This document shows positions 117 through 41,560 of a stretch of 64,000 nt of DNA, piece after piece. Position numbers and translations under genes: made by a program. The stretch is from the NCBI GenBank assembly GCA_036172245.1, contig JAYWIR010000082.1:62001-126000 (forward strand). Reading direction: 5' to 3'. A model generated the notes under the pieces. It was given only the letters and a program-made list of their open reading frames with translations. It was not told the origin of the DNA and searched no databases. Position 1 is the stretch's first letter. Each line of letters begins with the position of its first letter. This DNA comes from Raillietiella orientalis. Taxonomy: Eukaryota.

Positions 117-3100
117 TTGACGGTTCCATTGATAACATGGATTCGGTCTCATTGGACTCCTGTTCGCGACGAGGGCAACATCCGTTGCTTCCGGGCAAGC
201 GGAAGATTCCCTTCCCTCCACCACAGCCAGCACCTGTGCAAGAGTGGAGGCATGGCGCCAACTGGCGCTTGGACATCGCTCAGGCTGCTCACCAATTTGC
301 TGGGCTTTCCTTTGCCTCATCCCTTGGTTCGGTTCTCCCTCCGGACGGAAAATCCACTGCGGAAAAAGACCACTAGGGCGGAGCTCATCTGCATGCCCGC
401 CTGGCTCGAGAGGCTTTTCTGTCACAAGGAAGTCATCGAGGCGATTCTGCATGACACATCCATCCGCAGAGTCGCCGACTGGGACAGACTGAAGCATCGT
501 ATCCATTTGTTCTGCAACATGCAGTTCGGGGACAAGAGACTGAGGCAGGAAGCGTTCCGGGAGCTAAACATCCAAGATGGCTCCCTCTCAAAGTACTATG
601 AACAGTACGAGAGTCGGTACGTCTTCCAAAACGTAAAAGGGGAAGTCAGCGCGCTGGTGAAGAAGAATCTGGCAACAGACATCTTCTGCATCTAGTACGG
701 CGGCTACAGCCGGCACACGTCGGAAGACAGAGCACGCCTGTCTCACTGGACACAGGGGAATGTGGATGCCCGATGCGTCGAGTGCGGTGAAAGGGAAACC
801 TTCCCGTATCTCACCCTCGAGTGTGTCGCCCTGGTTGGACTCTGGAGTAGAATGGCCCCAATCCTCCATCTTCCAGTAGGCGACCCTAAGGAAATTTACC
901 GTCGCCTCTTTCTGCGTAACAGCCTGCGCCCCGCTGCGTCTCTAGCAGTCCTCTTCTGTGTGCGCTGCATCGTGCAAAGGTGGAACGCGAGAATAAGAGG
1001 CCAAAGATTCAGGGACGCCATCCACTGGACGACGATCTCTTTGGAGACGGCGACAAGGTGGCGTCTACCTCCAATGCTAAAAGCAGAACTTGGCTGTATC
1101 CTGAACAGGATGCGGAGGACCGACCCAGGCGCCCCACTCCCTATTCCTTCCCTGCCCCCCACTCCCTCATGGAACTGTTTCCCTCCCCGTTATTTCTCTT
1201 TTTGATTCTTTTTGTTACAGTTTCCCCTCCCCCTGCGCCTCGGGAAAGGACCTAGCCGGTCTCGGCACCGGCTCCCGAAACGTCTGCCAGCGTGGGAAAA
1301 CCAAGTGTTTTCCCACAAAAAACTATTTACAGACTTTATTAACTAATTTTGTAGGAATTAGATTAATAAATGCCCCGGCATATCCGGGTGACAAACGTTG
1401 GAAGACATCGTGGAGGCCTTCCAAAGGCACTACACGGGACACTTCCGACGGCAACACCTGTGTCCGGCAATTCAAAAGGCTTTCCTGAGTCATCTTGAAA
1501 AGAAGACGGATGACCTCCAACGGAAGAGACTGGAAGAGGATTTCTCCGAAGACGAGGTGAACACTGCGTTTCGAGAATTACGCAAGGATGTGGCGGTAGG
1601 TCCTGATAGTGTCCCCATCACTCACTATCAGCGATACCTGCACGCCTACCTGCGTTCATTGCACCAGCTGACCCTCTGCATCTGACAAGAAGGAAGACTA
1701 CCAGAATCCTTCTACGAGAGCAGGATGAGATTGCTGCCGAAAGGAGGCGACCTAACCAAGGTTGCCCAATCTCAATCCTCAACCCCGATGCCAAGTGGTT
1801 GGCAAAGATGTGGGCCAACCGCGTAGGCAAGGTCATGCCGAAGCTCATTTCTCCAGTCCAGACATGCGTGATGCCCGGACGCCACATGTCGGATAATGTC
1901 AAATGCGCCCAGGCCACTGTCGATACATCCGTGAGAATCTTGTGCTGGTGTGCACTGACATGGAGAAAGTTTTCGACGCCATCGACCATGGGATGCTTCT
2001 GAAGATTCTGGAAAAACCGGGTCTTCCGGAATACTTCGGTAACTTCGTGAGGATGGTACTCCAGAAACAGTACTTCCGAATAAAAATAAACGGAGAAGAA
2101 ACAGCAGCTATTCGGATGGAACGAGGAGTCTGCCAGGGTGCGCGTACGATGCGGTTTGTTATCTACATGGAGGCGCTGTCTCCTTTTATCGAGAAAAGTG
2201 GACGTCTCCGTGGGATCACCATCGACGACGAGAATATCACTCATCTGGCTTACGTGGACGATCTCCTCTTCTTCATCAAAGGAGAGCGAGATCAGCAAGC
2301 GTTCCTGGATGTGGTGGAGCTGATGGAAGAGAGATTGGGCTTGAAGATCAACGTCCAGAAAAGTCAAATTTGGCCCGTCGGCATCCTGGATCTCTCCTCT
2401 CTCACGGGTAGGATTCCGTACGGTGCACAACTCCAAGTACCTAGGAGTCCAAATCGGCGACGACTCCGCGTCAAAACTACTGTGGACTAAAATTCTAGGG
2501 AAAATGGCGAAAGAGGCGGCAAAACCTCGACTGGACCTTGGGATGAAAAGGAAGGCCAACCTTTGGAATGAAGTACTTCTTCCGAAAATAGTCTTCGGAG
2601 AGACCTTCCACAGAATGAACCAGGACACCACCAAAGTAGAAAAGCTGCAGAGGAAAACTCTCTGGGGAAAATACCGCCCCAGGGTAAGACTGAAACCCTT
2701 GTGTCGTCCCAAGGAAGAGGGTGGAACCGGGATGAAGTCGCTTGCACATTCCGTGGAAACCATGGATACGCGACACATCCTGGATATCGCGGCTCATTGG
2801 GATCGCCGTATGCGGCGCATAGGGCCTATTCGTTGTTGTTGAACAACTCGAAGGGCCCTATGACAGCGTTGCTAGGCCGAGCAGGGGAATGGTTCACCAT
2901 CGATCCCACCTGGAGAAGGAACCAACAGCTGGTGCGAAAACACCAACTAAAGATCGTTCCAAGTAGAGAACTCTGGCAGGAGGAATCCATCCTGGTGACC
3001 CTTGGATGCTTCGAGTGCCCCTGGACACGAGAAGCTGGATCTACGATCTGCCCAGAGTTACCCTGCAACGAATCCAGGAATGGAGAAGAGGAAGATACCT

Positions 3101-3960
3101 TCACCATTCTCGTATACTCCGGTATATCGAGATGGTGTTGGGAAGATACACCCACAGGACACGTGAGGTGTGGAAAAACCACAGTGACTTTGCTTAGTCC
3201 AGGGTGAACAAACAGAACCTCCGAAGATTAATTAAAGAAAACCAAGATTTCAGTGCACTCCACGAAGCTGCCGATCGCTACGGGAGTTACAGAATCAACC
3301 TGTTAGCGATCGGTACACGCTCTGGAGGAGTGACCTTCCGCCGAACACTCAGGACTACTTCCTGATATTTTATCACGGAGGAATCCTGAGCGGGTCCAGA
3401 TTGAAGTATTTCACCGGAAGACGGAACGATGAAGACTGCAAGGCATGTGGAGACGCAGACAAAAGACCTCACATCTTGACGTGTCCCACGTTGCTCCACG
3501 ACTGGCTGATCCTGAAAAGGATCATAGGACTGATCCACCACCTCAGTAATGGGAATCCTTGCCGGGATTGCAAGGGAATGCAAACGTTCCCTGTTATAAT
3601 CCCACGGTAAGAACGACCATTGCTCTCTTCATCACCGTTATACTTGTGCGGTGGTGGAAGATGAGGAAAGCCAGGACAGCCGCATCCCCGATGGAGATCA
3701 TGAAAGGACTAATCCAGAAGATCAGCATCAAGAATTGTGGAAGTCTCCAAGCCTGGACGTACCGCTACATTCTGAAGAGGATTGAGGACGATGCTCGGGA
3801 AACAACAACGAGGAACCCACCCTGAGTGCAGAATTTGCGTCACCCAAAGTAGACTTCCAATTGAAAACAAGTGTTTGAGGCAGTACGAATGAGATTGTAA
3901 TGTGAACGATAAGATCAGAAAATAAATTTACCCCACCCCTCGTGGGACTTGGGGAAAAAA
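117..3960 (+). mobile_element. L1/Tx1-clade non-LTR retrotransposon, family A, 5'-truncated and degenerate (APE C-terminus, linker, RT, C-terminal zinc finger, 3' UTR); interrupted at 730-1391
   Basis: Frameshifted ORF2 pieces: HPLVRFSL (APE end), AVGPDSVP, LLPKGGDL, DMEKVFDAIDH, RGVCQG, LAYVDDL, KYLGV, LCRPKEEGGTG, CKACGDADKRPHILTC. Ends AATAAA (3921) + CCCCACCCCTCGTGGGACTTGGGG + A6. Confidence 0.9.
730..1391 (+). mobile_element. Family B L1/Tx1-like 3' fragment (zf-RVT-like CxxC..H..C domain plus structured 3' UTR) nested in the family A copy
   Basis: HWTQGNVDARCVECGERETFPYLTLEC. Flanked by an imperfect 16-bp direct repeat, CACACGTCGGAAGACA (714-729) / CAAACGTTGGAAGACA (1392-1407). The host frame resumes after it (compare the uninterrupted RQTSEEIVKAF at ~21060). 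Confidence 0.85.
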
Positions 3961-5064
3961 GTAGTAAACCCAGCCTAACCTAGCTGGTGTCATTTCACCT
4001 GAACTGACTTGGAAAGGAACTGGAAAAGTAGGATCATCTTGCTGAGTGATGCGTGTCTAAGAAATTCTTTCATGAAACTCGAATCTGTACACCGTGGTCC
4101 ACGTACTAAGTTCATTTCTTTGTCGCAGGCAGGAAGATGTACACACACCAACTCCCTCAGGGAACTGCGTACTGCCCGAAGTGATGCTACATTTTGACAT
4201 GCTGTTCAAAGGCGATTCACGCAGAAGTCGCGTACTCGCGAATGCGGATTCACGGAACTGAGGTTGCCTTCGTCACAGAGTGCGCGGACTCATGCGAACG
4301 GTCGCGAAAGGAATGACATGTACACATGTGGCACGTACATGATGATCCTTGACGAAACGAGGAACGCGTGCTTTCAATGTAGCGTCCGACCAGCTGCGTT
4401 CCCAGCGCGTAGCGTACTCACTGATGACCAAGCTGTGGATTCACGGAACAAGGAAGAAGCAATTCAGAAACCAACGGGAGAAATAATTTCAGATGACTTC
4501 AAGGGAACACAAGAAATTCAGCATCCTGATTGGAGAAAAGAATGTTTCCGATAGTCCGCATGTTTTTTCGTGTATCACTTTGCAGAGCACAGGCAAGAAC
4601 TTGACCAATGCACGGCTTGAGACTCTCCTCACTGCACTAGGGAGCTTGAGTGACGTCACGTCTGCAGCAAAGTATCTGCTCCGCAACGAACCCTGTTGCG
4701 TAGCAACAGAGATTTGTTTTCACGAAAGGCCAGCCAACGTAGACAGGAACATCGCCACCGCCCTCTCCTGGAGCAACCGACGATCGCGCCAGGAGCCACC
4801 CTTCCCCCCGAGGGCGCTCCCGGCTGCAGAACCGTGTCGCCATTCCTTCTCCACCGAAAATCCAGAGTTGCGTTCGCCGTGCCTAGGGGAGCGGTGCGTG
4901 AAGTCGGTGCCTTCGCCTCCCCAACTTTGGAATCCTCCGTTTCTGCAAACCTAACTTACAATGAAAAGCGAAAGAATGGAATTTCAACTGCTTTACCTTG
5001 GGTTCTCTGCTCCTTGAAAGCAACGCACACAAAGTTCCAAAATCGACTTTTTCAAAAAAAATCG

Positions 5065-6277
5065 ATCTTGGAACAGCGATTGGTACACGGCAGCCCGGAG
5101 CTCCGCAGACCAGCCCAGTGCGGGTTTCACCTGCGTCGCTTGGACGTTGTGGTTCGGGAGAACGCCTGGATCTCCTGCCTTCCCGGGAACTACTCTGCAT
5201 GGCTGCACGAGTCAGTCTCCACGTGGGAAAAGATCCACATTCCGGCGGGCACAAAGAACACTTGCCTGAAAAGGCACGCCCGCTGGACGCTGCAGGAGAT
5301 CGTACAGTCCCACGACAAGCTTATGTGGGCCCTGATTACTCCCCTTGCCCCAGAGCTGCCCTTCCTTATAAACGCCAGGGACAGTAGCGAGCAGGGGAAA
5401 TGGACAGTTTCCTGCACCATTGGCGGCAGGACACAACTGATCAAGGCGTGGACATCTCGGCAGCTAGCGGATGCTGCGACGCCGAGTGTCCCGCCCATCG
5501 GAATTCGACACTGGGGCGAGCTACTCAGACTATCTCCGGAGGAGATGAAGTGGCCCCCAGCGTCCTGGAACAGTGGATCCCTCCCCCTGAATTGGCAGGA
5601 GGTGGCGTTGCTTGTCGAACATTGGGGTTTACCCTGCAAAGCACGCCTGTATCACTCCACACGGGGGGCTGTGGATCCCCAGTGCGACCGGTGCGGGGAA
5701 AAAGAGACATTCCCCCACCTTCTACTTGAATGCGGTGCCATCTGCCCTCTCTGGGATCGTCTTGCGGCGATTCTGGACATTCGCGGAGGCGCCCCTAAGA
5801 ACGTTTTCAGTCGCCTCTTCTCTCGTGACGCCTTGTCCCTTCCCGCTTGTGTATCAGTTCTCTGCTGCATTCGAGGGATCGTGGCAGCTTGGAACGCCAC
5901 CAGAAGAAGGCGTCAGGCCAGCGGCAACGCCTTACACTGGACTCGCCTTTTCGTGCGAAGCGTGTGCAAGTGGCGCCATTTGGGCGCAGATAGGACGCAG
6001 CTTGTGAGGATCCTGAACAGGATCTAGAGGACCTCTCCGCGCGCACTGTGATCCCTTCCCCGCCCTCCCATCCCCAAAACATTAGTGCCCTCCCCGTTTG
6101 AATATTTTGTTTGTTTTGTTTGTTTTATCCCCTCCCCGCGCATCGGAAGGACCTCGCCGGTTCAACACCGGCAAACAGCAGGCTGCCTTGCTGTGGTGGA
6201 CCTTCGGGTTCGCCACGTGAAAATTCATTGTGCTTTTGTTTTTTACAAATAAACGCCCCGGTATATCCGGGTGTAAA
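5065..6277 (+). mobile_element. Family B retrotransposon, 5'-truncated, with an open C-terminal ORF2 segment and 3' UTR
   Basis: Open frame to 6027 with AATPS...RHWGELL, HWGLPCKAR, CDRCGEKETFPHLLLEC. 3' hairpins and AATAAA-CGCCCCGGTATATCCGGGTG at 6248-6273. Left boundary approximate. Confidence 0.85.
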
Positions 6278-6449
6278 AGCCCGGAGCTCCGCTCAGCGCC
6301 AGGTTGCCGTGTACCAACCGCTCAGAATCAACCAGGGGTAATGATAGTCGTACCGCAGGCTCAGCTCTGAGACGCGAATCACCCAGATATATCTCCGGAA
6401 TGGACGATAGCACTGCCAGGCCGGAGCTTGAGTCCGCCGGTGTGGCATG

Positions 6450-7060
6450 CAAAGGTGAGCTCGGCAGTGGCAGATCACGGTTCTCTCATTGGACACGAAA
6501 GAGAGTGCATGGCCATTGTACAAAGTGCGGCGAGAAGGAGACCTTCATGCACTTCTTGGTAGACTGTTCTGCCCTCCTACCCCTCTGGAATCGTATCTCG
6601 ACGATCCTAGCAAACCCGGAGGGCGAACTCAGGGACATTTTCCAACGCATCCTCCCGCGTACCGATCTGCTACTAGCTGCATCCTTATCAATTCTCTGCT
6701 GTATCAACGAAATCGTGGCATGCTGAAACGTGACGAGCAGTGGGCAAAATATCAGGGACTCCATCCACTAGACGACGATCTCTTTGAGGAACGCGTCGAG
6801 ATGACCCCACCTGGGCAACGCAAAAACAGCACTCCTCAGCATCCTGAACGGCAGAGAATGTCTCCAGGCGAACAGTATGATTCCTTTCCTGAGCCCTCCC
6901 TTCCTTAAGAAACTTTCCCCTCTTCTTTTTACTTTTTCTATTTTTTTTTTTTTTTTTTGGTTTTCTTACCCCATTCGCTGGTGGAACGGATCTCACCGGT
7001 CTGCGTACCGGTTTTTGGCAACTCATTCGCTTGTGGTAGAACCAAGTGTTCTTCCACGAA
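6450..7060 (+). mobile_element. Family B 3' fragment (zinc finger and partial 3' UTR, terminal hairpin missing)
   Basis: HWTRKRVHGHCTKCGEKETFMHFLVDC; hairpins ACCGGT-ctgcgt-ACCGGT (6995-7012) and GTGGTAGAAC-caagt-GTTCTTCCAC (7033-7057). Confidence 0.8.
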
Positions 7061-8056
7061 TCTGTAATCTAATCTAACGACTTTTGTGAGTTCCTGTATC
7101 AAGCAGGTCGAAAGGTCGGTGATCCTCCCCTGAAGACCCTGCCCTTGGACCGTTTGGAGGGTCTCGGAAAGAAACAACGTGCGTGCAAGGAATTTCTGCA
7201 CATCGGGAATAGCACACATGGGCACGTTTACATACTCAGAGCCGCAAACCTCTGTCTGCAACAACACATCCGGTGCAACCATGAAAAAGAAATTCTCATC
7301 AAGTGTTCTCAATCTCAAGCGCAGTTAGGTCTGACATTTCCCAGTCGGCAATCACAGAGAGTAGGAAGAAGCTGTGTGACGCATTGAATTGAACAGAATC
7401 TCCAGCCACTTCTTCACCTCAGACAGATAAGTTCGGTCCTCGGATTGCAGGTTCATCCGTGCACAGCGGCTAAGCGTCTTACCTGTTAGAGGGGTTGCAA
7501 GTCGTAAACAGGACCGTAGCTGAAGAAGATCTCAGTTTGAAGATGAGACACTCTGTCTCACGTATTAAACAACTGCCTGTGTCGCGCTCCCCAGTGGACT
7601 CAAAGGCACGGTACCTTGACTCACCTACTGACAGCGGCAGCTAGAGGAATTGGGGAGAGGTTCCCTGCAGCAATTTATTCCCTGGAGTGGACCTTAGCCT
7701 CCGTTCTGTACACTTTATCCCAAGGGGGAAGGAACGTCATTCTGGAAGTTGTTGCCTGCTCTACCAAGAACACCCCTTCAACTTTCGGGGGGGTGCTCGA
7801 GGGGTAAAGAAGGGCAAACACAAAGACCACTTTCTCACTGTGCCCCTGTCGACGAAAGGCGCTCAGGTGAAGGCCAGAGCCCTCATAACTGACCCACTCG
7901 TGTCCTGGAATCACCACAATCAGGTAGTATTGTGAAAGATGATGATGCTGGAGCGACACCTCCACAAGATAAGGCGCCTCTTTGGTGCCTTGAATATCGC
8001 AATTTGGCTGCTGTCGACAACGGCCCTTGGTTGTGACATCCCTGATGAGGAAATTT

Positions 8057-8470
8057 CTCTCCCGGTGACGCGGTGGCGTTTATTTAAAAAACAAAAAAAT
8101 ATAAACAAGCTGAAAGCTGAATCTCCAACCAAAGACAAAAGAAATACAAGGGATGAGGCATCCATCGACAAGCACGAAAGGAAATCTCAAACTAGGAAAC
8201 ACAAGGGAAGCGGCATCAAATAAATATGGAAATATCGAACGGTAGAAGCAAGGATCTTTGGTTAATCCCGTTCTTTATAGAGAAGAAAAAACCAGGAAAA
8301 ATCCGGAACGGGTGAGAGGGCAATAAAGAACAGAAAACAAACAAATAATTCAATAAATAAGGGATGGGCATCGGCCGTTCCTTTCTTTTCAAGTTGGTAC
8401 TGGATGTCGGCTATCTTCGACTTGAATTCGTCTTCCAGGTGAAGCCGCCTTGCAGCCATCCCCACGTTTC
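8057..8470 (-). mobile_element. Family B-related 3' fragment
   Basis: Minus strand MAARRLHLEDEFKSKIADIQYQLEKKG resembles the ORF2 C-terminus of the 22111-22892 copy; ends AATAAACGCCACCGCGTCACCGGGAG. Confidence 0.65.
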
Positions 8471-8620
8471 TCACCCGGATTTTCCCGGGCATTTATTATT
8501 GAGAATTTTTATCCAAAAAAATCTAGAATAAATTCGTCATAACTGTTCGTTTCGTGGTAGAACACTTGATGGTGCCACGCTCGGGAGAGTTGCTATGAAT
8601 CGGTATGCAGACCGGTGATG
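8471..8620 (-). mobile_element. Family B 3' UTR-only fragment
   Basis: Minus strand ACCGGTCTGCATACCG, CGTGG..CAAGTGTTCTACCACG, AATAAATGCCCGGGAAAATCCGGGTG. Confidence 0.75.
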
Positions 8621-8621
8621 C

Positions 8622-10060
8622 CACCCGGATACTCCGGGACGTTTATTTAAAACCTCTAGCATGGTCAATACAAAAAACGTGGTACCAGGTCCCACTAACG
8701 GCCACGCAACACCGGACCTGCCGGGACGCAGACCGGTGAGGTCCTCCCCAACGGCGAAGGGGAAGGGAAAAACAAAATAAACAAAAAGAATTGAAATGGG
8801 AAGAAAGATGCTTTTTGAGGAAGGGAGGGCTGGGAATGGATCACTGTTTGCCTGGATTGGTCCTCGGCGTCCTGTTCAGATGCTGACAAGTGCTGCTCTT
8901 GAATTACTCCGGTGGAGCAATCTTGAAACGGTCTCCAAGACGATCGTGGTCCAGTGAATGGCATCCCTGCTTTCTTGGCCTCTTCTTTTAGCGTTTCGCC
9001 TTGCCAGGATGCCGCAAACACAGCAGAGAACTGCTAGTTGCGGCGGGTGGAAGTGCATCACACCTGTAGAGGTGGCGGAAAATGTCTTTAGGGTCGCCTA
9101 CAGGAAGATTCAGAATCGACGAGAGTCGATGCCAAAGTTCGCGGAGGGCGAAATAGCTGTCTATTAAGAAATGCGAGAAGGTTCCCCTTTCGCCGCACTC
9201 TGCACAACGGGCATCCACACTCCCTAGTGTCCAGTGAGAGAGGCGTGCTCTGCATAGGATTCTCCAATGCAAAAGGAGCAATGCAGTCCGTTGCCGCTTC
9301 ATCGGAAGGGTGCCACTATCCTAACACTCTGGGGCCACTTCACCTCCTCCGGAGGTATTGCGAGCAGCTCGCCCCAGCGGGCAAGTCCTTCAAACGGGAC
9401 GCTCGGGGTCGCAGCCCCCACTAGCTCCCGAGTTTTCCACGCCTTTAACGATTTCTTCCTGCCTCCGATGAGGCAGGACACTCCCCGCATTGCCCGTCCG
9501 TCGCTGTCCCTAACGTTCCTGAGAGAGGGCAGCACTGCAACAAGGCGAGTAAAAGGAGTCAACAGCAAATTTCGTGGGTTGTTTACAATCTCCTGCAGGG
9601 GCTGACGAGCGTAGGTTCCTCTTCGGAGGCAGGAGTATTCCGCCTCGCTCGGGCCGTTGATTTTTCCCCATGCGGAAACTGACTCCTGAGGCCAGTCGGT
9701 GGAGTTCGCGGTAAGACAGGAGATCCACGTATTCTTCCTCACCAGGGCAACCATCTGGCGCAGCTGATGGCCACAATAACCCAGTCTGCGTTGATTCGCC
9801 ACGAGGATCGAAGACAATCCTTCGCAGCCGGTCGCTCTGCAGGAGAGGAGCCGTGCGGGTTCACATCAGGGCGTTATCCAGAAGTTCGCCGCATGGATGA
9901 GTCTCCGAAATCGGAGCTGCCGCTCCATGCGCTCCAGCGTCAGCAGACCCAATCCACCGTCCCTGCGTGGAGCGTCCAAGTCTTCCAAGCGGACACCGGA
10001 CCTCCCACTGCCCCACAGGTCTTGCCTCAGAGGACTCTTGGTCGGTCTTTTGATGATTTG
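8622..10060 (-). mobile_element. Family B retrotransposon, post-RT region to 3' end
   Basis: Minus frames: LWGSGRSGVRLEDLDAPRRDGGLGL (post-RT motif), AATPSVPFEGLARWGELL, HWTLGSVDARCAECGERGTFSHFLID; ends AATAAACGTCCCGGAGTATCCGGGTG. Confidence 0.85.
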
Positions 10061-10429
10061 TGGGGCGGGGCAAATAAAAAGTAAGGGGCGAAGAAGGGAG
10101 ACGCGAACGCATTCCACACAGCTTCACGTTCCTGCAAGGAAAACTTGTGGCATGTTGATGGAATAGATGGTTAAGTATGTAATTTATATTGTGGAAGATG
10201 TACTCATTGTGGAGGTTATTCATGCTATGTGGGAAATAGATGAATAGGTTATAAGTAGTCGGATAGGTCAGAGCTATGATAGGGGCTATTATGGCTCTGA
10301 GAATTGTGGAAGGTAGGATAATTGGTGATGGTGAGAGGGATATGATGAATATAGGGGTTAGTTTTTGTCAGGATAGTAGAATTGTGGTTGATAGTCATGA
10401 GGAGTTCTTGATGATGGGCAATAGTCAAT

Positions 10430-11190
10430 AATGAAATGGAAGTATGCCATCCCGGAACGGGCTGATCGTCCCCACGTAGGCGGCTGCCAGTACGGTGACC
10501 TCCCTTCGCCGCATCTGCCTCTCGAGCAGTTGGCGGGCCTTGACACAACACACGATGAGGAAATCGAAGAGAACATGGAAGACAACAAAAAAAGGGCACC
10601 AGCCGATGTAGATGTGGTCGAGGCTTCTCGCAAAAGACAGGATGATGGACAGGAGATGAAGAGGTGGAGATGGCAAAGATGGGGAAGATCGCAAAGAACC
10701 TGGTCCTTTCTCTCTATGCGATCTCCCTGTTCACCATCACTAGAGGAGATGGTTCACGCACGTCCTTGGGATGTCCAGCTCGTGCGGCATGCCGTCGTTC
10801 TTGAAACCCCTGCACCCCATTGAGCCGACAGCTCTGACACGAACCGATGCTTTGGGTCTTCCTGGGGATGAAAGCTCGTGGTTCAAATGTCTTTCCTCTT
10901 CGCATTTGTTTACACGGTACGCTGTCGGTGTGCTTTCGAATGGGCGACGCAAGTCGAACATCATGATGCCATTCGTCTTTCTGAGGAAGAGTTCAAGTCG
11001 CGAGAACGCCCTGTCGTCTAGCCAGGATCCTCCCTGCTTCCCCCTCTTGATCAGATGATGCAAAGTTGAAGGCGCCAGCTCCAAGGAATGTGTGACTCCG
11101 CCCACTCTGGAACCGACGGCTAGATCCACCCCTACCTGTTTCCCTTCGGTTGCTCAGGTAAAAGGAGATGAAAGCGTGCGACATGAAATG
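10430..11190 (-). mobile_element. Probable decayed LINE ORF1 (gag-like) remnant
   Basis: Degenerate zinc-knuckle-like stretches (VNKCEEERHLNHE; GCRGFKNDGMPH) in a GC-rich segment upstream of the minus-strand family B copy. Confidence 0.35.
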
Positions 11191-14100: not shown

Positions 14101-15530
14101 GTAGGTACTCATAGTCGTAATGAGGTGTTTTCTTCGTGTCGCACATGCCAGTAGCCTCTCAAACAGCTCCCTTTGTATCTTTTCTTCATTCCTTATTAAT
14201 TACAGTCCGTATTATTCTGCTGAGTAATTAGCTGCTATGTATTCTTGTTGATTATGGTTTTTCCTTGCAAGCTTTCAACTTGCAGTAACAGGGAATCATC
14301 CATCAGATCACGTATTTATGACTGCATTCAAATCTGAAGTCAAGAGCTTATAATTTGCTTGTACACATTGAAAGTTTCTTCTTTCGTTTGCAGTAAACTT
14401 TCTTATGATTTCATTTCAAGTTTGACTATTCGTTGCCGTGGTTTCATTTAAGGCAATTGCATTTGCTTTCCATCCTCCCACTTCCGCAAGTGAGAAGCCA
14501 GCTTGACTTGGAGGATCTCCTAGCCTTTGCTCCCAGTGCATGTCCCGGCTGTGTTGGATGCTGAATGACACCTATCCGGTTGACCGGAAAGTTCCATACA
14601 TTGCAGACATCCTGTTCTAGAAATTCCGACATCTTGATGAGAGGACGTCGATCGGGCGAAGTGACGGCTGGGTTGCTGATAGCAGAAGAGAAAGCACGTG
14701 CTGACCATGTTTTGATCTCTGTTCTTTCACGTGCCTTCATGGAGGTTGCCGTTTCGCTTTCAAACGCTCAGCACGTGACCGGTGGGAAAATGTTTTCTCT
14801 TTCCAGCACGAGACAGGCCCCAACAACGACTCATAGCAGCTATGCTTTGTGGATGAACAGGATCTCCCATCGCTTCTATATGTAATCGACCAAGGCGTTT
14901 CATCCCCTTAGCTGGGGAAGAATCTGACATGAGTAGCAGCGTTTTCGCCCAATGCTTGCGCTGAAGGCAAGATTGGTCGCCTGCCTGCACCCATGCCTGT
15001 TGTATAGATGAATTAGTAGCTGGCGATGAGTAGGGGATCACGCTCGTATGAAAAATGTCTGGCGGCACAATGCAATCTAACGCATTATATGGCCTTGTCT
15101 TGATAAGGATAGTTCTCGATCAGGGATCACCATGTCTCTCTTCATTCCATGGTTAGTATTCTCACCGCTATTCAATTCTTCACTACCATGAGTAGAGTTT
15201 TTTGAGGGAACTTGGAAGCAGTAGGTCAAGAGAGGTGAATGGTCTGAGGCGGCTATCTGCCAAAAACGAATTTTTTTTCTTCAGAAGGTTTACGGTGGCG
15301 AGACATCCGTTTGCTCGTCCATTATATTTGTCTTCGTTGGGAAGTTGGGAGTCAAGGATGGCTCACCAACTTCTAGATCTCTTCGTTATTGATAGTGTCT
15401 TCACTGTGCTCCCCAAATCGCTGATCCCTGGATGTGGCGAATGTGGAAAATAAGATGTTTTTATGGCATCTATCATTTTCCTTCTTGGAAGAAAGTCTTC
15501 TTGATGAGCATTTCGCATAGAATTTATTAC

Positions 15531-21459: not shown

Positions 21460-23700
21460 AATTTTGGCTACAACTGCAGAATCATTCCCGCTGGCTCTGC
21501 CTGCTCTTCCAACTTTTCCATTATGATTGACGAACTGCTGTTTAGTCCATAGTGGGGTTGTTCCTGTTTCATAATATAACTTAAGGGGTCGCTCGCATCG
21601 TCGGGTGGATGACCCAGTCTGTGGGTCCAGTAGATATCCCTGCTTGCCCTAATGCAGCAGGATACACACAGCTTTCTCAACTTTTTTACGTTGTTTTCTT
21701 TGATTCCTAGTAGTCGTAGTATGGTGTCGTTCTTGGATCCCACGATCCTAAGGCTTCTACGATGAATACTTGCATAGTTGCAGATCCGCCGGAATGGTTG
21801 ATGCTGTGGATTAGAGTTTGGTATTTTTCTTCCTTGATTTTTCTTGCTCCTGTGAGCGCATTTTCCTTGCCTTCGAATGGGCAAGTAATGTCCACCATGA
21901 TCCACTTTCCATGTTTCTCCAGTATGAGATCCGGCCTTAACAGGGAGTCGACTTCGGGTATGCTCTGGTCCACTGATAATAGCTTGCATCCTCCTACCTT
22001 TGTGGCGACATTTTGCAGTTTCAGCGCGAATGCATTCTGTCGAGAGATGTACATCGGGAAGTGCATTACTCGGTGATTCAATATGTGCGGTAATGTCTCG
22101 TCCTGACAGTCGCCGCCACGCCTCGCCACATCTCGAAGGGACTCCTTCGGTGAAGTGAACACTTGAGTGTGCCCCCCGAAGAACTTGTGGTCCCTCCCTC
22201 CTGTTTGAACACTTCTGTGTTCTACCTTTCGTGGAAGCAGGACGTCATCATGCTGGTGCATTGGGATTTTCACTCCAACCAGCGGACGAACCGTGTTTCC
22301 GGGGGAGTTGTCTCCCCGAACTGTAAGCGGTGCGGGGAAGTGGAAACGCTCCCGCACCTGCTCCTGGACTGCGGTGCCCTTCTAGGACTTTGGCGGAGGC
22401 TGGCCTCAGCTCTCCTGCACCAGAGGGACACCGCGAGGGACTTGATGCGCCGCTTCTTCACGCCAGGCGGCCTGTCTTTGGGTGCTGTCGTTGCAACCGT
22501 GTGTTGCACCCGCGCCATCGACAAGGCCCACCGAGAGTTGGAGAAGCTGGCCATCGTTCGTCAGCCCACCGGATTAGCCAGCGCAAGCATGTCGTCGGCT
22601 GCCGAGCGGGCCCATCTGCCACAGGACGTAAGGAGAGAGATCGCCGGCATCCATCGCCGGTTTTGAAAGGAAGGAACGGACTCACCAAAGACCCCTGTCC
22701 CATGCCCACCACATTTTTATTTTTATTTTTTATAGTAGTGTATTTGTGGTCCCCTCCCTCCTGTTCCGGACTTTCGCCATACCGACCTGCGTGTCGGGGA
22801 TCCCACCCCCTTCGTATCTTGTTTTCCCCTTTGTCCACGAACTCTGTTCCCGGATAGTTTTTAATAAACTCCCCGGCGCACCCGGGTGGTAAACAGTTGC
22901 ACCTTCGGCATATACGATCTTCTTGCTGCTCCTCTTATAGGCAGGATGTTTAGCCTTGCGGCGTGGATGAAGCGGTAATCGGCGAACCGAATATGGTCTT
23001 CCGAAGTAAGGAAGTGGCTGGAATCCTTATGTAATCCAGCGCTGCTGATGGCTTTCCCTAAGTCTGGGTGATTTTCTATCAAGGGAAGCCACATCTTTTC
23101 GCGTTGGATGGATCGGATGTTAGCCGCGAATTTCCTCCTTACCGTACTATCCAGAACTACTCCAAGTATTCTTAGTTTTGGTTCAGCCTTTTCAAATTCC
23201 CATGTTGCCTTAGTGCGGTTTGAAGCTCTCCTGGCCGTTGTCCATAGGCTCTTGATGTCCCCACCGCTTCTTTCAAATTTTCCTTTCAGGGAAAAGCAAA
23301 GCTTTTCCCTGAAAGGAATTGACCAGCTCCTCCTTCCGTGGGTTGTTGAAGTATTTTCTTTGCTACCGCCTCACGCAAAGATTCTCCGGCAAGATTTCTA
23401 CCGATTTGGTCTGGCGATGTTCGTAGCTTAAAGCAGCTGCTTTATCCGATAGATGAAGGTGTCCATGATGAAGGTGTCAGCTTCATCCGATAGCCTCATG
23501 AGTCCAAGGCAACCTTTCTTCTCGTCACCGTAGATATATTCGTTCGCGGAAGTCGGAGGGAGGTGGACTGTTTCCTTGACTAGCTGCTTTATCTCGATGT
23601 CCAGGTTTTTCCAGTCGGATTTCGGTTGCATCCCTAGCCTCTCGAAGTGGATGAGGCTAGGCAAGAAGAATACTTTCAATGCATCCAACTTTTGCCCTTT
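21460..23700 (-). mobile_element. NeSL/Utopia-like non-LTR retrotransposon with restriction-like endonuclease (RLE), 5'-truncated, interrupted at 22111-22892
   Basis: Minus frames: QKLDALKVFFLPSL, HLPPTSANEYIYGDEKKGCLG, SSHFLTSEDHIRFADYRFIHAARLNILP, ICRRCNC|QDETLPHILNH (CCHC), LRPDLIL..VDITCPFE..KEEKY..ALGSWDP (PD-(D/E)xK RLE). Confidence 0.9.
22111..22892 (+). mobile_element. Family B-related 3' fragment inserted into the NeSL/Utopia-like element
   Basis: AATP..GLL, CKRCGEVETLPHLLLDC; ends AATAAACTCCCCGGCGCACCCGGGTGGTAA; ACAGT duplicated at 22106-22110 and 22893-22897. Confidence 0.85.
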
Positions 23701-26900: not shown

Positions 26901-27179
26901 CCCAGTAAATGGCTTAGCAGTAACATTTGTGACACCAAAAGTAGAAGGAACCTGGGCTAGTGAACAGCAGCTTTATGTTGCTCGTGGCTGGTGGCTGCAT
27001 ATACTTTTAACAGAACCTATGCAACATGAAGTTCTTGCAGATTTGCACTTGCTGGATTCTAAAGAAGTAAGCACATAATATCCTGAATATTCAACCTTCT
27101 GTTTTAGTTAGTTCTTCCTCACACATTCTATTGGTGTAAACACCATTTGGTATTCACTATTGTAGAAAATGAATACTGA
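23976..27179 (+). CDS. Sufu: Suppressor of fused, 7 coding exons (23976-24094, 24853-24945, 24989-25167, 26261-26489, 26531-26649, 26699-27066, 27108-27179), 392 aa
   Basis: GLSALYSACSNLYPNQSNALQV..FWLGGPDPLDYV, PHWHYVSFGLSDLHGD, GFGIELTFRL, GDHIPW, LITDMRRGETIF, GSNLSGVS, GRLHHGRHFTF. All introns GT-AG; exon sum 1179 nt is in frame. Confidence 0.93.
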
Positions 27180-30040: not shown

Positions 30041-30271
30041 TGGTCATTTGCTCTCATCCATGTGTAGCCTTAAAGTTTGGTAGTTTTCCCACACTCGATG
30101 TCAGAAGTTCCGTAGCCCCTAGCCATATTCTGGTTTCTCGACAAAATCGCCTCGAAGCCAAAAAATAGTTATTCGAATCAACAATGGAATGTGCAAATAC
30201 ATATTTATAGGAATGTATAAACTGGACTATTTTTGTGACTTCACGACAAGATCAAATAATCAAAAGGAACA

Positions 30272-32242
30272 CTTCAGCAACTTCGTGAGGGCGATACTCC
30301 AAAAAACCAGTACTGCCGTATCAAAATCAACGGTCAAGAGACGGCAGCAATCAGGATGGAACGGGGAGTCCGGCAGGGCGACTCGCTAAGTCCGATGCTG
30401 TTCGTGATCTATATGGAGGCGCTGTCCTCTTACATCGAGAGGAGCGGACGCCTAAATGGAATTTCCATCGATGGTCAGCAACTTACCCATCTGGCGTACG
30501 CGGATGATCTCTTCTTCATCAAGGGAGAGAGGAATCAGCGAGCGTTCCTGGATGTGGTAGACCTCATGGAACAGGGCCTGGGTCTGAAGATCAACGCCCA
30601 GAAGAGTCAGCTTTTACCCGTCGGAATCCTGGACCTCTCCGCTCTCACGGGGAGTGGATTCCGTACGGTGGATACGGCCAAGTACCTGGGAGTCTACATC
30701 GGCGACGACTCTGCATCGAAGCTGCTGTGGACGGAAATCCTGGGGAAAACGGCCAAGGAAGCAGCAAAGTACACTCGAGTGGACTTTAACATGAAGCGAA
30801 GAGCCAACCTGTGGAACGGAGTACTTCTTCCAAAGGTACTCTTTGGGGCGGCCTTCGCAAGAATGAATAAAGAAACCACGAGAGAAGTAGAGAAGCTGCA
30901 GCGTAAAACACTGTGGGGCCACTACCGCCCAAGAGTTCGTCTTAAACCCCTGTGTCGTCCCAGGGAAGAAGGCGGTTCCGGGATGAAGTTGCCTGCACAT
31001 TCCATGGAAATCATGGATACGCGACACATCCTGGACATAGCCACTCACTGGGATGACTGGCCATATGCGGCGCACAGGGCCTACGCGTTGTTGCTCAACA
31101 ACTCGAAAGGCCTGATGACTGCGCTGCTAGGCCGAGCAGGAGAATGGATCTCCATCGACCCGACCTGGAGACGAAAACAACGGCTCGTGCGAAAGCACAA
31201 GATGAAGATCGTGCCAAGAAGCAGGGAACTCTGGCAGGAGGAATCCATCCTGGTGATCCCTTGGATGCTTCCGGTCCCTCCGGACACGAGAAGCTGGATC
31301 TACCAGCGGCCCAGAGTTACCCTCTCAACGGATCCAGGAATGGCGCCGAGGAGGATACCTACATCATTCTCGTGTACTCCGGTACATAGAGATGATGCTA
31401 GGGAGGTTTACCCACCAGACCCGCGAGGTGTGGATTAACCACAACGACTTCGCGTGGTCCAGGGTAACCAGAATGAACCTCCGTAGGATGATCAAGGATG
31501 AAGACAAAGACACTAGTGCCCTCCAAGAAGCCGCCGACCGCTACGGGAGCGATCGCATCAACCTGTTGGCGATCGGCACAACGCTCTGGAGGAGTGACCT
31601 TCCGCCGGACACCCAGGACAACCTCCTGATGTTCTACCATGGAGGAATCCTGACGGGGTCCAGACTACAGCACTTCACGAGAAGAAGGGAAGACAGAGAC
31701 TGCACGGCGTGTGGTGACACCGACACAAGACTTCACATCTTGACGTGTCCCACACTGCTTCACGACTGGCTGATCCTGAAAAGGATCATCGGACGGATCA
31801 CCAGCTCCGTAATGGAGATCCTCGCCGGGATGTTTCAGGGAGATGGTAATGTTCCCTGTTACAATCCCATGGTGAGGACGACCATCGCCCTCTTCATCAC
31901 CGCCATACTTGTGCGGTGGTGGAAGATGAGGAAAGCCAGGAGAGCCGCACCTCCGATGGAGATCCTCCAGGGACTCCTGAAGAAGGAAATCAGCATCAGG
32001 AACTGTGGAAGAATCCAAGCCTGGACGTACAGATTCATCCTGAAGAGGATCGAGGACGACGCCCGGGACCATCCAGCTGGAATCCCACCCTGAAAAGCAG
32101 AACTCTAGTGACCCCAAAGAACTTCAAAGTGAAAAAGTGGTAGTATAACGAGTGAATGAGAGTGTGAATGTGAAATTGTAGTGTGAATGTTATTTTTATA
32201 GAAAAATAAATTTACCCCACCCCTTGTGGGACCTGGGGAAAA
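30272..32242 (+). mobile_element. Family A 3' half (RT, C-terminal zinc finger, 3' UTR), few lesions
   Basis: RGVRQGDSLSPMLF, LAYADDL, KYLGV, LCRPREEGGSG, CTACGDTDTRLHILTC; ends AATAAATTTACCCCACCCCTTGTGGGACCTGGGGAAAA. Confidence 0.92.
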
Positions 32243-32269
32243 TCAAATAATCAAAAGTCATCTATGAAG

Positions 32270-33594
32270 GATGGAGGCAGTGTGACTACTCACTCCGCGC
32301 GTGGTACCAAGCGTTGCTGGTTCGAATCCTCACGTGAAGGATCTACATCGAGAAAAGGGTGCATCATGTCTTTAGACTTTTGCTGCGTCGTACGAGCACG
32401 CCTTACACGTGCTGACCGCTGAAACAGATATTGATAAGCGCGTTACGCCAGCAGGAGCGCAGATAATCCAGGAAGACTTCCGGGAAGCCCATGCGTCCCA
32501 GAAGCTCCAGAAGGAGTTCCTGGTCGATGCAGTCGAATGCTTCGTGGGCACAGTGAGGCATGCAACGCGCCCAACAGGAACGACGCTTCCTGTTTGGGTG
32601 CTACAGAAGCTGCACGCTCCGAGAGATCCTGGAGGATCCGAAGAAGAGAGCGTGGTCAGGAAGAACCCCCCTCGCTGCTGCGCTGGCCTCCCTAATGGAA
32701 GATCAGGACAGCGATGTTGCGGCGAAGTGGGAGGTTAGAGTAACTATCTCCGGGAAGAAGAAGAAGATAGGAGAGTGGAAGACGGGCCAGCTAACAGACG
32801 CTGCAACCCCGAGTACGCCTCCCAATGGACTTCTGCGCTGGGGCGCGCTGCTCGATGTTCCCATTGAACATCTGAAGTGGCCCCCGGTGCTCATGAACAC
32901 TTCCACCCTCCCCTTAAAATGGCAGGAGTCGGCTCTACTGTTGCAGCACTGGGGACTCCCCTGCAACGCCCGCCGGCAACACTGGACCTGGGGAGCGGTG
33001 AACCCCAATTGTGTTAGGCGTGGGGAACCGGAGTCCCTCCCCCACATACTAGTGGATTGTGTTGCCCTTCGGCCCCTTTGGTTCCGCTTTGCCGCGGCCA
33101 TCGGAATCCCCTGCGGCAACCCCAGGGACGCATTGAAAGCCCTCTTCGTTGCCGACGCCCTTCGGCCTGCGGCCTCGATAGCAGCCCTGTGCTGCCTACG
33201 CGGGACTGTCGCCGCTTGGAGTAAGGCTACGGGAGGACCTCGCGATAAGGGTGCCATCCAGCACGCCTTTGAATTTTTGAGGAGGGCGTCGCGGTGACCC
33301 CACCTGGATCCAGGAATGCAGAAAGAGCTTGCCGGCATCCTGCGAAGGATGCAACGGCCCCAGCAGCAACAGTGATCCCTTCCCTTACCCTCCCACCTTT
33401 TTCTTTTCTTTTGGTTTAGTTTTTTTGTTTATCCCCCTTCCTCCTGCTGCCGTGGTGGACCGTACCGGTCTGCGAACCGGTGACCCGGCAGGCTCTGTGT
33501 TTCTTCGTGCGTGGCTGGAGCACTGTCCAGTCATAGCACGTCATTGTAAAAGTTTATTTTTTTAATAAACGCCCCGGCGAAATCCGGGTGAAAA
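32270..33594 (+). mobile_element. Family B retrotransposon, 3' part
   Basis: AATPSTPPNGLLRWGALL, QHWGLPCNARRQHWTWGAVNPNC..ESLPHILVDC; hairpins at 33464-33481 and 33506-33540; AATAAACGCCCCGGCGAAATCCGGGTGAAAA. Confidence 0.85.
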
Positions 33595-33599
33595 TCGAA

Positions 33600-34710
33600 T
33601 ACTTCGCGCCGACTGATCACGACCACAAGGGTTTCAGGGCATGTCTGCTTTTTGATGGCCTTCTCCTTCCTGGTCAGAGGAGAATCAGGGATTCTCGTGA
33701 CTTATCAGCAAAACCCGCTGTATCAATTGCCACCATGAGCTCGCGATAACAGACTGACCTTCATGATTCGTCCGAGAACAGAGTTCAGTCTGCTTCTGAC
33801 TGACCACGGCTTTTGCCACCCATCCCAGTCGCTCCGCCTCCAGTTTGACAAGCAGCTAGGCGTTCGCGTTTACTACCGTGATCGGCCGCCATTCACCAAC
33901 GTCGCTCAAGTCTCCTGTTTTGGGAAAGAGACGTACTCTTGTTGACCAGAACGAGACGCGTACCTTGCCTGTTTCACTGATCAGCGTGCGTAGCTCGGCG
34001 TTCCAGGATAACAAGCTCTGTCACGAGATGTTTGTAATACTCCGCAAGGCCGTCCTCTCCTGGTGCTGTTGTCTCGTGAGCTTTCTGATGACGATCTCCG
34101 ACATCGTGAACGGCTCGCCGAGACTTCTTTGCTCCTCCTCCCCTAACTCTGGTCAGCCTTCGGGCAGCAAACGCTGCTCAAAATCGTGCTCTGAGTATAT
34201 CCCTGCATAGAGGGAAGAGTAGAGATAATGAAAAATTCACCCCACCTTTGCTGGGACCGGTAAGGTGTGCAGATACGTCTTTTCTTTTCTTAATCCCCGA
34301 AGCCTGGAGGAAGCCGATTTAGGAAGTAACTGGTCGCAGAACTCTGTCAAACTGTCCCACTCTTCGAGTGTCTGCAGTTCAAACTCTCGCAGGAATTCAC
34401 AGAGGTATTCTGTTGCTCCTAAGAGGTTCAACCAGTCCCCTGGAAGGCGTCACTCTTGAGAGGGAGGACCCCTGTCTCTCGGATTAACTTCCGGCTCAAG
34501 CCGGGAGTGGTTGACCTTATGGTACCTCTATTTCCCACTTGTGTACACAGGTGGTTGTCGAGGAACGCGCGGTCGATGCTTTCCTCCATCTCGGCTTGTC
34601 CAGTTGGTCTATATTCAGGTGTGCCGCACGAATATAGGCCAACCACAGTCATTTTGCGGGGAAACTCGAACCCACGACGCACCCTTTTCTCGAAGTCGGT
34701 CCTTTATTTT
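33600..34710 (-). mobile_element. Degenerate L1/Tx1-like ORF2 fragment (APE end, linker, RT N-terminus)
   Basis: Minus frames: ESIDRAFLD, LEEWDSL, LGEPFTMSEI, RLFPKTGDLSDVGEWRPITVVNAN. Confidence 0.75.
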
Positions 34711-35460
34711 CACCCGGTTACGCCAGGACGTTCATGGTAAAAAAATATTCGCAAAAAAGCATCCATATACAAGATGAAAAATGTCTTTCTTCGTAGGAGC
34801 TTCACGCCACCACTAAGGAGGGAGATGCGTCGGTGGCGCTGCTTCTTGTGAGCAGCTCCCCGATGAGGTCTGCACAGGAGGAGTGGTGGAAGGGCTAAGC
34901 AGAAACAAAAACAAAAAAAACTTGGGTTTAAAAATGTTTTAGGGAAGGAGCAGGGAAAGGAAAGGGATCACAGATTTCTTTCCGGCGTCCTCGGCATCCT
35001 CCATAGGATGCTGAGGACGAAAGGAGGAAGTTGCCAACATCCTCCAGAGGATGCTTTCCTCCTTTGACAGAGATGTGACCATCTTGTCTCCTTCCTTATG
35101 AAGGAGCAGATGATTGCGATGACCTCATCATTCGACTGATCTCTTTCGGCGCGACTTCTCTCCGTCAAAATCCCACGGAGTCAGCACAAGGCTGCAAGAG
35201 AAGCTGCAGGAGACATCAAGTCGCGCGTGAATAGGCACCGCAAGACCTCTCTGCCGTTGTCCATCGGGAGTGAGAGGACCGCAGCGAAGCGTTCCCGGAC
35301 ACTCAGGAGGGCAACACAATCGAACAGCAGGTGCGGGATGGTTTCCCGTTCCCCCTCATCTGGCACAGCCTGGGGCCACGCTCCCCTCGTCCAGTGATGG
35401 ACTCGTGCATTGCATGGAGCAGTGGGCTCTGGCTGTCTCCTTGCCGATTCCTTTACGGAT
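34711..35460 (-). mobile_element. Family B 3' fragment
   Basis: PCNARVHHWTRGA..ERETIPHLLFDC; terminal ATGAACGTCCTGGCGTAACCGGGTGAAAA on the minus strand. Confidence 0.8.
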
Positions 35461-40700: not shown

Positions 40701-41325
40701 CGCTATGTTCAGCAATGCTAGTAAATATTTACACTGATATTCATATAATGGATGAATAATGAATATGTTCACCATATGATGTTGTCAAATGTAGCAACAT
40801 ATATAGAAAATAAACACTACATTCGTTTTGAACTTATTTCCAACAAATGTGTCATTATTCATCGTTCGTTGATGGAATTGATCGAAAGCAGTAAATACCA
40901 TCGTTGAATATATCGTTGATCAAGCTACTGATTGATCACATGACAGCAACCTTACTGATTATGAAATCATTAATTCAATTGATTTTTCTTTAGTTTTTTG
41001 TTGTATTGCCAATAATAGACCCTTAGGTTGCGAGTTTTTGAATAGTCAGGAGCATGAGGCGGTTGTAATGCAATTTATTTTTTTTTGCCTATTTTATCCA
41101 TCTGTTTCAAGAATGACATCTTTAAATGAGTTTTAACAAACTGAACACTTGCATTTATAACTCATATATTTCTAAGTAAGAAAACATTTATTGACTGACG
41201 AAAAAGCGCTCTTATTTTAGAGTGATGAATTCCATCAACAGCCTTTCCCCCTCTTGTATGTTCACTTAATGTAAATGATGTACACTACAGAAAGTTCAAT
41301 CATGCTTTGGAAGTTCCTCTATTTG

Positions 41326-41560
41326 AACCCCGTTCCGCAGGGATGTTTATTGTAATCGGTTGATATACAATAAGACCTGGGGTCCAACCACCCGAGGGTA
41401 GATGTGTAACCAGCCTGCTGGTCAGCGAGGTCCGCTTTGGGAAGGTGGGGAAGGAAAAGAAAAAATAAACAAATAGGAAGCTTTCTATGGGATGCCTTGA
41501 GAGGGAATAGAGAAAGGATAAAGTTCCTCTGAGTGCTCAGGCATTCAAACATTCTGTCAA
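41326..41560 (-). mobile_element. Solo 3' end of a family B-related element
   Basis: Minus: pyrimidine tract, GGACCTCGC, then AATAAACATCCCTGCGGAACGGGGTT; a GC-rich island in AT-rich DNA. Confidence 0.55.

Follow-up and report, generated by a model that had tools for sequence, protein, structure and literature searches.

What purpose, if any, is served by the hairpins that recur at the 3' ends of retrotransposon copies in a 64,000-nt stretch of the genome of Raillietiella orientalis? The stretch (contig JAYWIR010000082.1, positions 62,001 to 126,000; hereafter, the window), to which all the results described here pertain, contains ten 5'-truncated, decayed copies of an L1-like retrotransposon that lacks long terminal repeats (non-LTR), denoted family B and numbered c1 to c10, as well as a second, distantly related L1-like family, denoted family A. 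Two adjacent hairpins (HP1 and HP2) are found in 9 of the family-B copies and a terminal hairpin preceded by AATAAA in 9, with both present in 8; c3 lacks the terminal hairpin, and c6 has no recognisable HP1/HP2. An earlier, sequence-only reading of the window, made without database searches, had counted about nine copies sharing the module, in agreement with these nine HP1/HP2 sites and nine terminal sites in ten copies. We put at about 0.55 the probability that the module is the structured 3' untranslated region (UTR) of an L1-like non-LTR retrotransposon of the apurinic/apyrimidinic endonuclease (APE) type with "stringent" template recognition.

The 3' UTR of family B begins at the stop codon of open reading frame (ORF) 2 (TGA inside CAGTGATCC), which is followed by a C/T-rich and then a T-rich tract, GGACCT, HP1, a spacer, HP2, an A/T-rich spacer, AATAAA, 2-3 nt, the terminal CCCGG-loop-CCGGG hairpin, TG and then about 4 nt. 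GGACCT, the five HP1 sites and the three HP2 sites located in the sequence-only reading were all found again at the same positions. Across the window, 7 sites match the terminal pattern AATAAAYGYCCCGG-N5-CCGGGTG at no more than 3 mismatches, with 0.01 expected, and 4 match the HP1 consensus, likewise with 0.01 expected. Covariance models for HP1+HP2 and for the terminal module, built from the copies and run unfiltered over the window, each recover exactly 9 sites, the former at 29.6-72.5 bits (E-value <= 9e-7), with the next match, at 17 bits, lying antisense to one of the nine sites, and the latter at 39-51 bits (E-value <= 6.4e-6), with the next match at 13.5 bits. Every module in the window sits in a long interspersed element (LINE) fragment.

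In public collections, the terminal pattern yields 9 metagenome and 6 prokaryote-genome loci, which are chance matches in GC-rich, bacterial-type contexts without upstream likeness; the best of these 15 loci reaches 10.4 bits with the HP1+HP2 model (E-value 0.08), and none carries HP1/HP2. The viral collection contains 0 loci with the pattern. A comparison with Rfam, which the sequence-only reading had proposed along with the suggestion of a processing module, places the module in no Rfam family: in Rfam 15, self-cleaving ribozymes included, there are 0 matches at gathering score and only 3 at E-value <= 1, none of them in the module, and no ribozyme or other processing signature was found that would sustain the suggestion. 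Two further foldings were considered and rejected. A fourth hairpin, with AAUAAA sequestered by an upstream UUUAUU, does not rise above shuffled spacers (0.10-0.55 of the shuffles are at least as good in the 9 copies), and a helix closing GGACCU against the sequence ahead of AAUAAA appears only in the c8 and c10 folds and was dismissed by eye.

The way in which the copies end is the first line of evidence for stringent recognition. Seven insertions, 199-2499 nt long, are bounded by target-site duplications of 11-16 bp (six of family B and the family-A element E2), and in 7 of 7 the tail is 3-4 nt long. These insertions end 3-4 nt past the hairpin and therefore have no poly(A) tail; the usual 3' poly(A) tail of the L1 clade is absent from all seven judgeable ends. 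The six family-B insertions bear out the earlier observation that the element terminates directly behind its last hairpin, with next to no poly(A). By a single rule requiring 10 bp or more, 6 of 8 family-B ends have a duplication at offset 4, compared with 16% of 2000 random positions, which places the family-B figure far above chance. The two ends that the sequence-only reading had singled out as defined by duplications, at 1391 (c1) and 22892 (c4), need revision. c1 does have a duplication, with the end at 1394 and at 1391 only under an alternative 16-bp reading, and for c4, as for c9, no target-site duplication was found.

The second line of evidence is a steep gradient of conservation. In the terminal hairpin, 42 of the 45 arm cells of the alignment are paired (93%), the arms and flanks are conserved as sequence, and the loop is different in all nine copies. 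Pairwise identity in the last ~45 nt is 0.63-0.75, rising to 0.84 among c1, c2, c5 and c8, compared with 0.36-0.58 in the coding and UTR blocks upstream; the C-terminal ORF2 pieces of family B are 33-49% identical as protein. Across the 75 positions of the family-B target-site duplications there are only 5 differences, so that decay since insertion must be small and most of the divergence predates insertion and separates source lineages. The source lineages kept the terminal ~26 nt despite their divergence. Of the nine family-B ends, 8 have AATAAA, as have both family-A ends, 20-28 nt before the element end. Out of 125 AATAAA sites in the window, 10 have a GC-rich hairpin no more than 6 nt downstream, and 9 of these 10 are the element ends described here; among seven control hexamers, with 68-159 sites each, such a hairpin follows 0-1, and for the overlapping hexamer AAATAA it follows 5 of 119.

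The third line of evidence is the covariation in HP1 and HP2. The nine HP1/HP2 modules were aligned with plain MAFFT, the helices of the sequence-only reading were imposed, and the pairing was compared with 500 shuffles. Standard pairs fill 82.2% of the 135 cells, versus 26-47% with the 3' partners slid out of register by 1-3 columns, a control that retains the relatedness of the copies. Both sides have changed in 9 of the 17 pairs (shuffles 5.1 +/- 1.5; 4 of 500 reach 9), and 14 cells carry such a change (shuffles 6.3 +/- 2.0; 0 of 500); the covariation score is 0.312 versus 0.214 (1 of 500). A model-fitted alignment reproduces this result. Given the six core copies, RNAalifold predicts HP1 and HP2 unaided, with compensatory changes in 6 of 16 pairs; given all nine, it recovers HP1 alone, because HP2 is misaligned or broken by gaps in c4, c8, c9 and c10. 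Among individual changes, the second pair of HP1 is A-U in c3, c5 and c7 and G-C in c1 and c2, c4 replaces G-C with A-U and U-A with C-G in HP1, and the middle pairs of HP2 range over G-C, C-G, U-A and U.G. HP2 has the lowest sequence conservation of any block (0.36 pairwise identity), yet 87.5% of its cells are paired, and 5 of its 10 pairs have changes in both partners. There are 20 G.U cells to 9 A.C cells, an excess that favours the sense strand as the folding strand, and sense folds have z <= -2.1 in 6 of 9 copies.

Family A provides the fourth line of evidence. It consists of two elements, E and E2, which are 78.6% identical to each other over 1.9 kb, and it carries the reverse transcriptase (RT) domains of the window. 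E2 (30267..32241, plus strand), with RT plus a C-terminal CCHC domain, ends in AATAAA (32205-32210), TTTA, a hairpin at 32215-32238 (CCCCA.CCC...GGG...UGGGG) and the tail AAA, within an exact 16-bp target-site duplication (30251-30266 / 32242-32257). The end of E (3921..3960, plus strand) has the same AATAAA-TTTA-hairpin succession, at 3921-3954, and then AAAAAA. The terminal hairpin of this family has an 8-bp GC stem unlike that of family B, at -13 kcal/mol, and the 3' UTR is purine-rich and GTGAAT-like, with no equivalent of HP1/HP2; the CCHC domains of the two families are 27% identical (E-value 2e-8). The layout of AAUAAA, GC hairpin and very short A run is kept across families A and B, and the stem sequence differs.

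With regard to the identity of the elements, the RT domain is recognized as RVT_1 (E-value 1e-13 to 1e-14), and the closest solved structure is human L1 ORF2p (1e-14), with R2 at 4e-10 or weaker. Those relatives that bear names are plant proteins, ~30% identical, with the automatic labels "LINE-1 ORF2" and "Transposon TX1", and among 1.84 billion representatives no RT relative is better than E-value 1e-29 (~30% identity); a search of the ESM Atlas returned generic RVT_1 clusters only. Of the nearest relatives scanned, 9 of 14 have an APE endonuclease domain (PF03372) and 7 of 14 have zf-RVT. A CX2CX7HX4C motif after the RT is conserved in families A and B; the zf-RVT matches in the window, at 20.4 and 17.1 bits, fall under the Pfam cut-off of 27.5. 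The C-terminal ORF as query found nothing in the protein collection, and its best solved structure, at E-value 0.55, is not meaningful. No endonuclease (Exo_endo_phos) or ORF1 was found in the scanned ORFs of the window, where all copies are 5'-truncated. The earlier claim of L1-type elements is upheld by RVT_1, by human L1 ORF2p as the best solved relative, by the C-terminal CX2CX7HX4C and by the LINE-1- and TX1-named relatives, and thus, judging from domain and motif matches, the elements of both families are probably L1-like, at the level of the L1/Tx1 clade as a whole. The stretch of ORF2 between the endonuclease and the RT occurs in three copies in the window, 321-727, 20668-21074 and 28074-28423 (minus strand), which are 68-73% identical.

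Under the proposed mechanism, AAUAAA, lying 20-28 nt before the element end, would set the 3' end of the mRNA just beyond the hairpin. The ORF2 protein would bind the terminal hairpin together with its conserved flanks, and target-primed reverse transcription would begin at a fixed point 3-4 nt beyond the hairpin, producing new copies without poly(A); HP1 and HP2 would be family-specific accessory structures for the assembly or stability of the ribonucleoprotein. We infer, rather than observe, the RNA-binding partner, the RNA end and the initiation directed by the hairpin. The spacing of AAUAAA fits a transcript cleaved just past the hairpin, 20-28 nt being the usual distance from polyadenylation signal to cleavage site. 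The combination of no poly(A) with a fixed 3-4-nt tail implies that reverse transcription starts at a set point beside the hairpin, as expected from a protein bound to it. Two hallmarks of the stringent type are found here: the 3' end is the best conserved part of the element, and the 3' stem-loops HP1 and HP2 show compensatory changes.

The same ends could be produced if the terminal hairpin served mainly the formation or the stability of the transcript 3' end, an alternative that we consider unlikely although it accommodates several of the observations. In one version, the GC hairpin between AAUAAA and the cleavage site defines or strengthens polyadenylation without downstream host sequence; in the other, the hairpin halts 3' exonucleases, the RNA ends a few nt past the stem, and RT starts at the physical end. 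Both the AAUAAA of 8 of 9 family-B ends and of both family-A ends, 20-28 nt before the end, and the termination of the elements 3-6 nt past the stem speak for such a role. Copies without poly(A) are left unexplained by it if the RNA is polyadenylated, unless initiation is positioned as well, and so are the covarying HP1 and HP2; furthermore, the module matches neither a ribozyme nor any known processing RNA, and the test for a hairpin sequestering AAUAAA is not significant.

The hairpins might, on the other hand, have no structural function at all and be incidental GC palindromes, spread by common descent and by exchange of 3' tails through template switching. The invariance of the terminal stem, hence its lack of covariation, the relatedness of the copies, which inflates shuffle tests, and the head-to-tail pair of c8 and c7, which shows template switching at 3' ends, are all compatible with this explanation. 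We nevertheless find it improbable because HP2, the least conserved block (0.36), pairs in 87.5% of its cells and shows changes in both partners at 5 of 10 pairs, the loops vary freely and the arms do not, the stem that the second family has in the corresponding place is a different one, and the slid-partner control, in which relatedness is retained, gives 26-47% versus 82% paired. Least probable of all is action at another level, with the hairpins serving as sites for ORF1p or host factors (in export, translation or silencing) or folding in single-stranded complementary DNA during second-strand synthesis: antisense and sense fold equally well by energy and the conserved upstream pyrimidine tract and GGACCU have no assigned role, but the 20 to 9 ratio of G.U over A.C favours the sense strand, and the extreme 3' position with a fixed short tail indicates initiation of reverse transcription.

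Several observations weigh against stringent recognition of the 3' UTR. Within family B, the terminal hairpin has 1 both-sided change, equalled by 98 of 500 shuffles, so that the earlier claim of a covarying multi-hairpin module stands for HP1/HP2 and falls for the terminal hairpin; this lack of covariation leaves room for a purely sequence-specific or DNA-level role. In HP1/HP2, the count of further pair types is a weaker signal, with 41-47 of the 500 shuffles as good. HP2 is not universal: it is intact in ~6 of 9 copies, being absent from c4, rearranged in c9 and decayed in one arm in c7, and it is also missing in c6. The sample consists of 9-10 related, dead copies from one window, and the shuffle control ignores their relatedness. 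By fold z-scores, -3.6 to -0.8 for sense and -4.7 to 0.0 for antisense, the strands are not told apart. Only c2, c6 and c7, 3 of the 6 family-B cases, fix the 4-nt offset without ambiguity, and c1 and c5 permit shorter tails if a mismatch is accepted. Finally, all copies in the window are 5'-truncated, with no full-length or intact element among them.

The individual copies of family B differ in completeness and in setting. c1 (730..1394, plus strand, 665 nt, 5'-truncated) is inserted into a family-A element, its flanks being contiguous parts of E. It comprises GGACCT (1248-1253), HP1 (1254-1273), HP2 (1292-1316), AATAAA (1365-1370), the terminal hairpin (1374-1388), GTG to 1390 and the tail ACAA (1391-1394); the 13-bp duplication (717-729 / 1395-1407) has 1 mismatch, and the fold z-score is -3.6. 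c2 (5107..6277, plus strand, 1171 nt, 5'-truncated) has HP1 at 6156-6172, HP2 at 6193-6216 with a C-UUCG-G loop, AATAAA at 6248-6253, the terminal hairpin at 6257-6271 and the tail TAAA at 6274-6277, within an exact 15-bp duplication (5092-5106 / 6278-6292) and with a fold z-score of -2.9. A 457-codon open frame at 4654-6024 (plus strand) spans the 5' junction of c2 (5107), joining it to the older c3 element that hosts it, and is therefore a composite of two insertions rather than one gene. c3 itself (6988..7059, plus strand) has GGATCT, HP1 (6995-7012) and HP2 (7033-7057) and is the top match of the HP1+HP2 covariance model, at 72.5 bits; the terminal AATAAA-hairpin is missing, the terminal model has no match downstream, and this part of the copy is 3'-truncated or interrupted.

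A divergent lineage is represented by c4 (22768..22892, plus strand), in which HP1 (CCGAC/GTCGG, 22782-22797) carries two compensatory pairs, HP2 is lacking, and AATAAA (22863-22868) and the terminal hairpin (22872-22886) are followed by GTAA. c5 (32547..33594, plus strand, 1048 nt, 5'-truncated) has HP1 at 33464-33481, HP2 at 33511-33534, AATAAA at 33564-33569, the terminal hairpin at 33573-33588 with a 6-nt loop and the tail AAAA at 33591-33594, within a 14-bp duplication (32533-32546 / 33595-33608) with 2 mismatches. Consecutive minus-strand RT pieces flank it on both sides (32412-32543 and 33748-33975), which means that c5 was inserted into an older, oppositely oriented RT-bearing element.

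The remaining copies lie on the minus strand. c6 (8055..8466) is the 3' part of a c4-like copy, with a terminal AATAAA-hairpin of decayed stem at 8059-8084 (43 bits with the terminal model) and the tail AGAA (8055-8058); its 5' part, at 10467-10553, is separated from it by the insertion of c8 and c7, and the exact 11-bp duplication is at 10554-10564 / 8044-8054. c8 (8622..10466) is a 1.8-kb copy with an HP1 variant (8720-8737), a short HP2 and a terminal module at 8622-8647, directly followed by c7 (8468..8621), a 150-nt copy that starts at HP1 (8599-8616) and has its terminal module at 8472-8497 and the tail AGAA at 8468-8471. The two share one 11-bp duplication with 1 mismatch (10467-10477 / 8457-8467). 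They stand head to tail (8468-10466, minus strand), nested within c6 (8055-10553), and ~3 nt past the GTG of c8 the 150-nt copy, from another sub-lineage, begins at HP1. The arrangement looks as though, in a single insertion event, the template was switched to the 3' end of a second RNA. The RT of R2 initiates precisely and jumps between templates. In the divergent c9 (34707..34871), an extended hairpin replaces HP1, CATGAA stands for AATAAA, and the terminal hairpin (34711-34736) has a U.G pair; the covariance models give it 31 bits for HP1+HP2 and 46 bits for the terminal module. c10 (41322..41520, 199 nt) is a 3' UTR only, in AT-rich host DNA, with a wobble-rich HP1/HP2 at 41365-41433 (41 bits), a terminal hairpin CCCTG/CGGGG at 41326-41351 (39 bits), the tail CAAA and an 11-bp duplication with 1 mismatch (41521-41531 / 41311-41321).

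The window has eukaryotic, animal-like content, with host stretches at 31-37% GC, and the ~52% GC regions, at 1-11 kb, 20-23 kb and 28-36 kb, consist of nested non-LTR retrotransposon fragments that are mutually 65-79% identical where alignable. The host encodes SUFU and SUFU_C (SUFU exons at 26218-27075), ankyrin repeats, an E2 ubiquitin-conjugating enzyme (59063-59674), a GMC oxidoreductase (58047-58815, minus strand) and an ABC transporter (pieces at 56127-56910). The ankyrin repeats are in two frames of 205 codons each (15396-16656, plus strand), and this region contains a direct repeat (15534-15628 versus 15633-15727, 75% identical). At 37732-37864 (plus strand), the first ~33 nt are a near-perfect 5' end of U2 small nuclear RNA (ATCGCTTCTCGGCCTTTTGGCTAAGATCAAGTG), with diverged sequence after it; the Rfam U2 score, 36.8 bits, does not reach the gathering score of 46. 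Two origins are conceivable, a pseudogene of U2 or a retroposon whose head derives from U2, as described for the crocodilian SINEU and Tx1 (PMC4494074).

The broader implications are conditional. It is possible, at rather less than even odds in our estimate, that an animal L1-clade lineage dropped poly(A) as a handle and that a unit of ~20-28 nt, made up of AAUAAA and a GC hairpin, both sets the mRNA 3' end and positions RT, with synthesis then beginning 3-4 nt beyond the stem. If so, families A and B would be co-evolved, mutually exclusive pairs of RT and hairpin, and would provide animal evidence for the stringent recognition that Ohshima proposed to be ancestral in the L1 clade (PMC3472496). 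The choice of template by L1-clade RTs bears on the mobilization of Alu and mRNAs by mammalian L1 and on whether poly(A) dependence is ancestral or derived. The human enzyme could usefully be compared with that of an animal-type L1-like element that starts at a fixed point by a hairpin, and such an element would also be a possible source of precisely initiating RTs.

Mammalian L1 resembles the elements described here in that human ORF2p is, among solved structures, nearest to their RT and in the C-terminal CCHC, 5' truncation, 11-16 bp duplications and AATAAA near the 3' end. A 3' UTR stem-loop has reportedly been proposed, in one paper (PMC5135761), even for human L1 and Alu. Mammalian L1 differs in that it depends on and carries a poly(A) tail (PMC3747384), compared with 3-4 nt in the copies here. 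For Tx1-clade elements, the cited passages mention poly(A) for the associated SINEU (PMC4494074). In our searches of the open literature, which are weak on 3' UTR wording, no description of an animal L1/Tx1 family with such a 3' structure was found; "TX1" in PMC4176376 designates mutant proteins rather than the clade.

Recognition of a 3' stem-loop by most LINEs, and reliance on poly(A) by mammalian L1, are established (PMC3747384, PMC4176376). In the L2 clade, the 3' stem-loops of UnaL2, ZfL2-1 and ZfL2-2 are recognized by a region of the ORF2 protein of the same element (PMC4176376, PMC3747384), and, within one genome, each related family has a cognate stem-loop of its own (PMC4176376), as families A and B may too. 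The L2-clade elements differ in that they belong to another clade and have short TGTAA end repeats for slippage, with no AAUAAA-hairpin arrangement reported in the cited passages (PMC4176376, PMC3747384), and in that their binding has been shown experimentally (PMC4176376), whereas for the present elements it is a proposal from sequence. The proteins of R2 (PMC11194090) and of SART1, of the R1 clade (PMC3747384), likewise bind their own 3' UTR RNA specifically for target-primed reverse transcription; both are site-specific and belong to other clades, and SART1 retains poly(A) (PMC3747384).

The closest counterparts are within the L1 clade. A monocot lineage has the last 45 nt conserved and a hairpin with compensatory changes, and there is a green-algal case as well; among the families tabulated for the clade, 9 of the 233 from flowering plants and 5 of the 15 from green algae have no 3' repeat (PMC3472496). 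The monocot "1a" LINEs (LINE1-1_ZM), with ZmSINE2/3, and Chlamydomonas L1-1_CR share with the present elements a compensatory 3' hairpin and inferred stringent recognition (PMC3472496, PMC3747384). In both the monocot lineage and family B, the last ~45 nt are the least diverged, with a divergence of 0.144 versus 0.570 in monocots (PMC3472496) and an identity of 0.63-0.84 versus 0.36-0.58 here. Recognition of a 3' stem-loop is thus already known, including in plant and algal L1-clade LINEs, and the elements described here are, as the evidence stands, a well-documented example rather than a new principle. What is particular to them, unlike the monocot and algal cases, is an animal-type host, a set of three hairpins in family B, an AAUAAA that directly adjoins the terminal stem and tails of 3-4 nt, along with the presence of two families with different stems.

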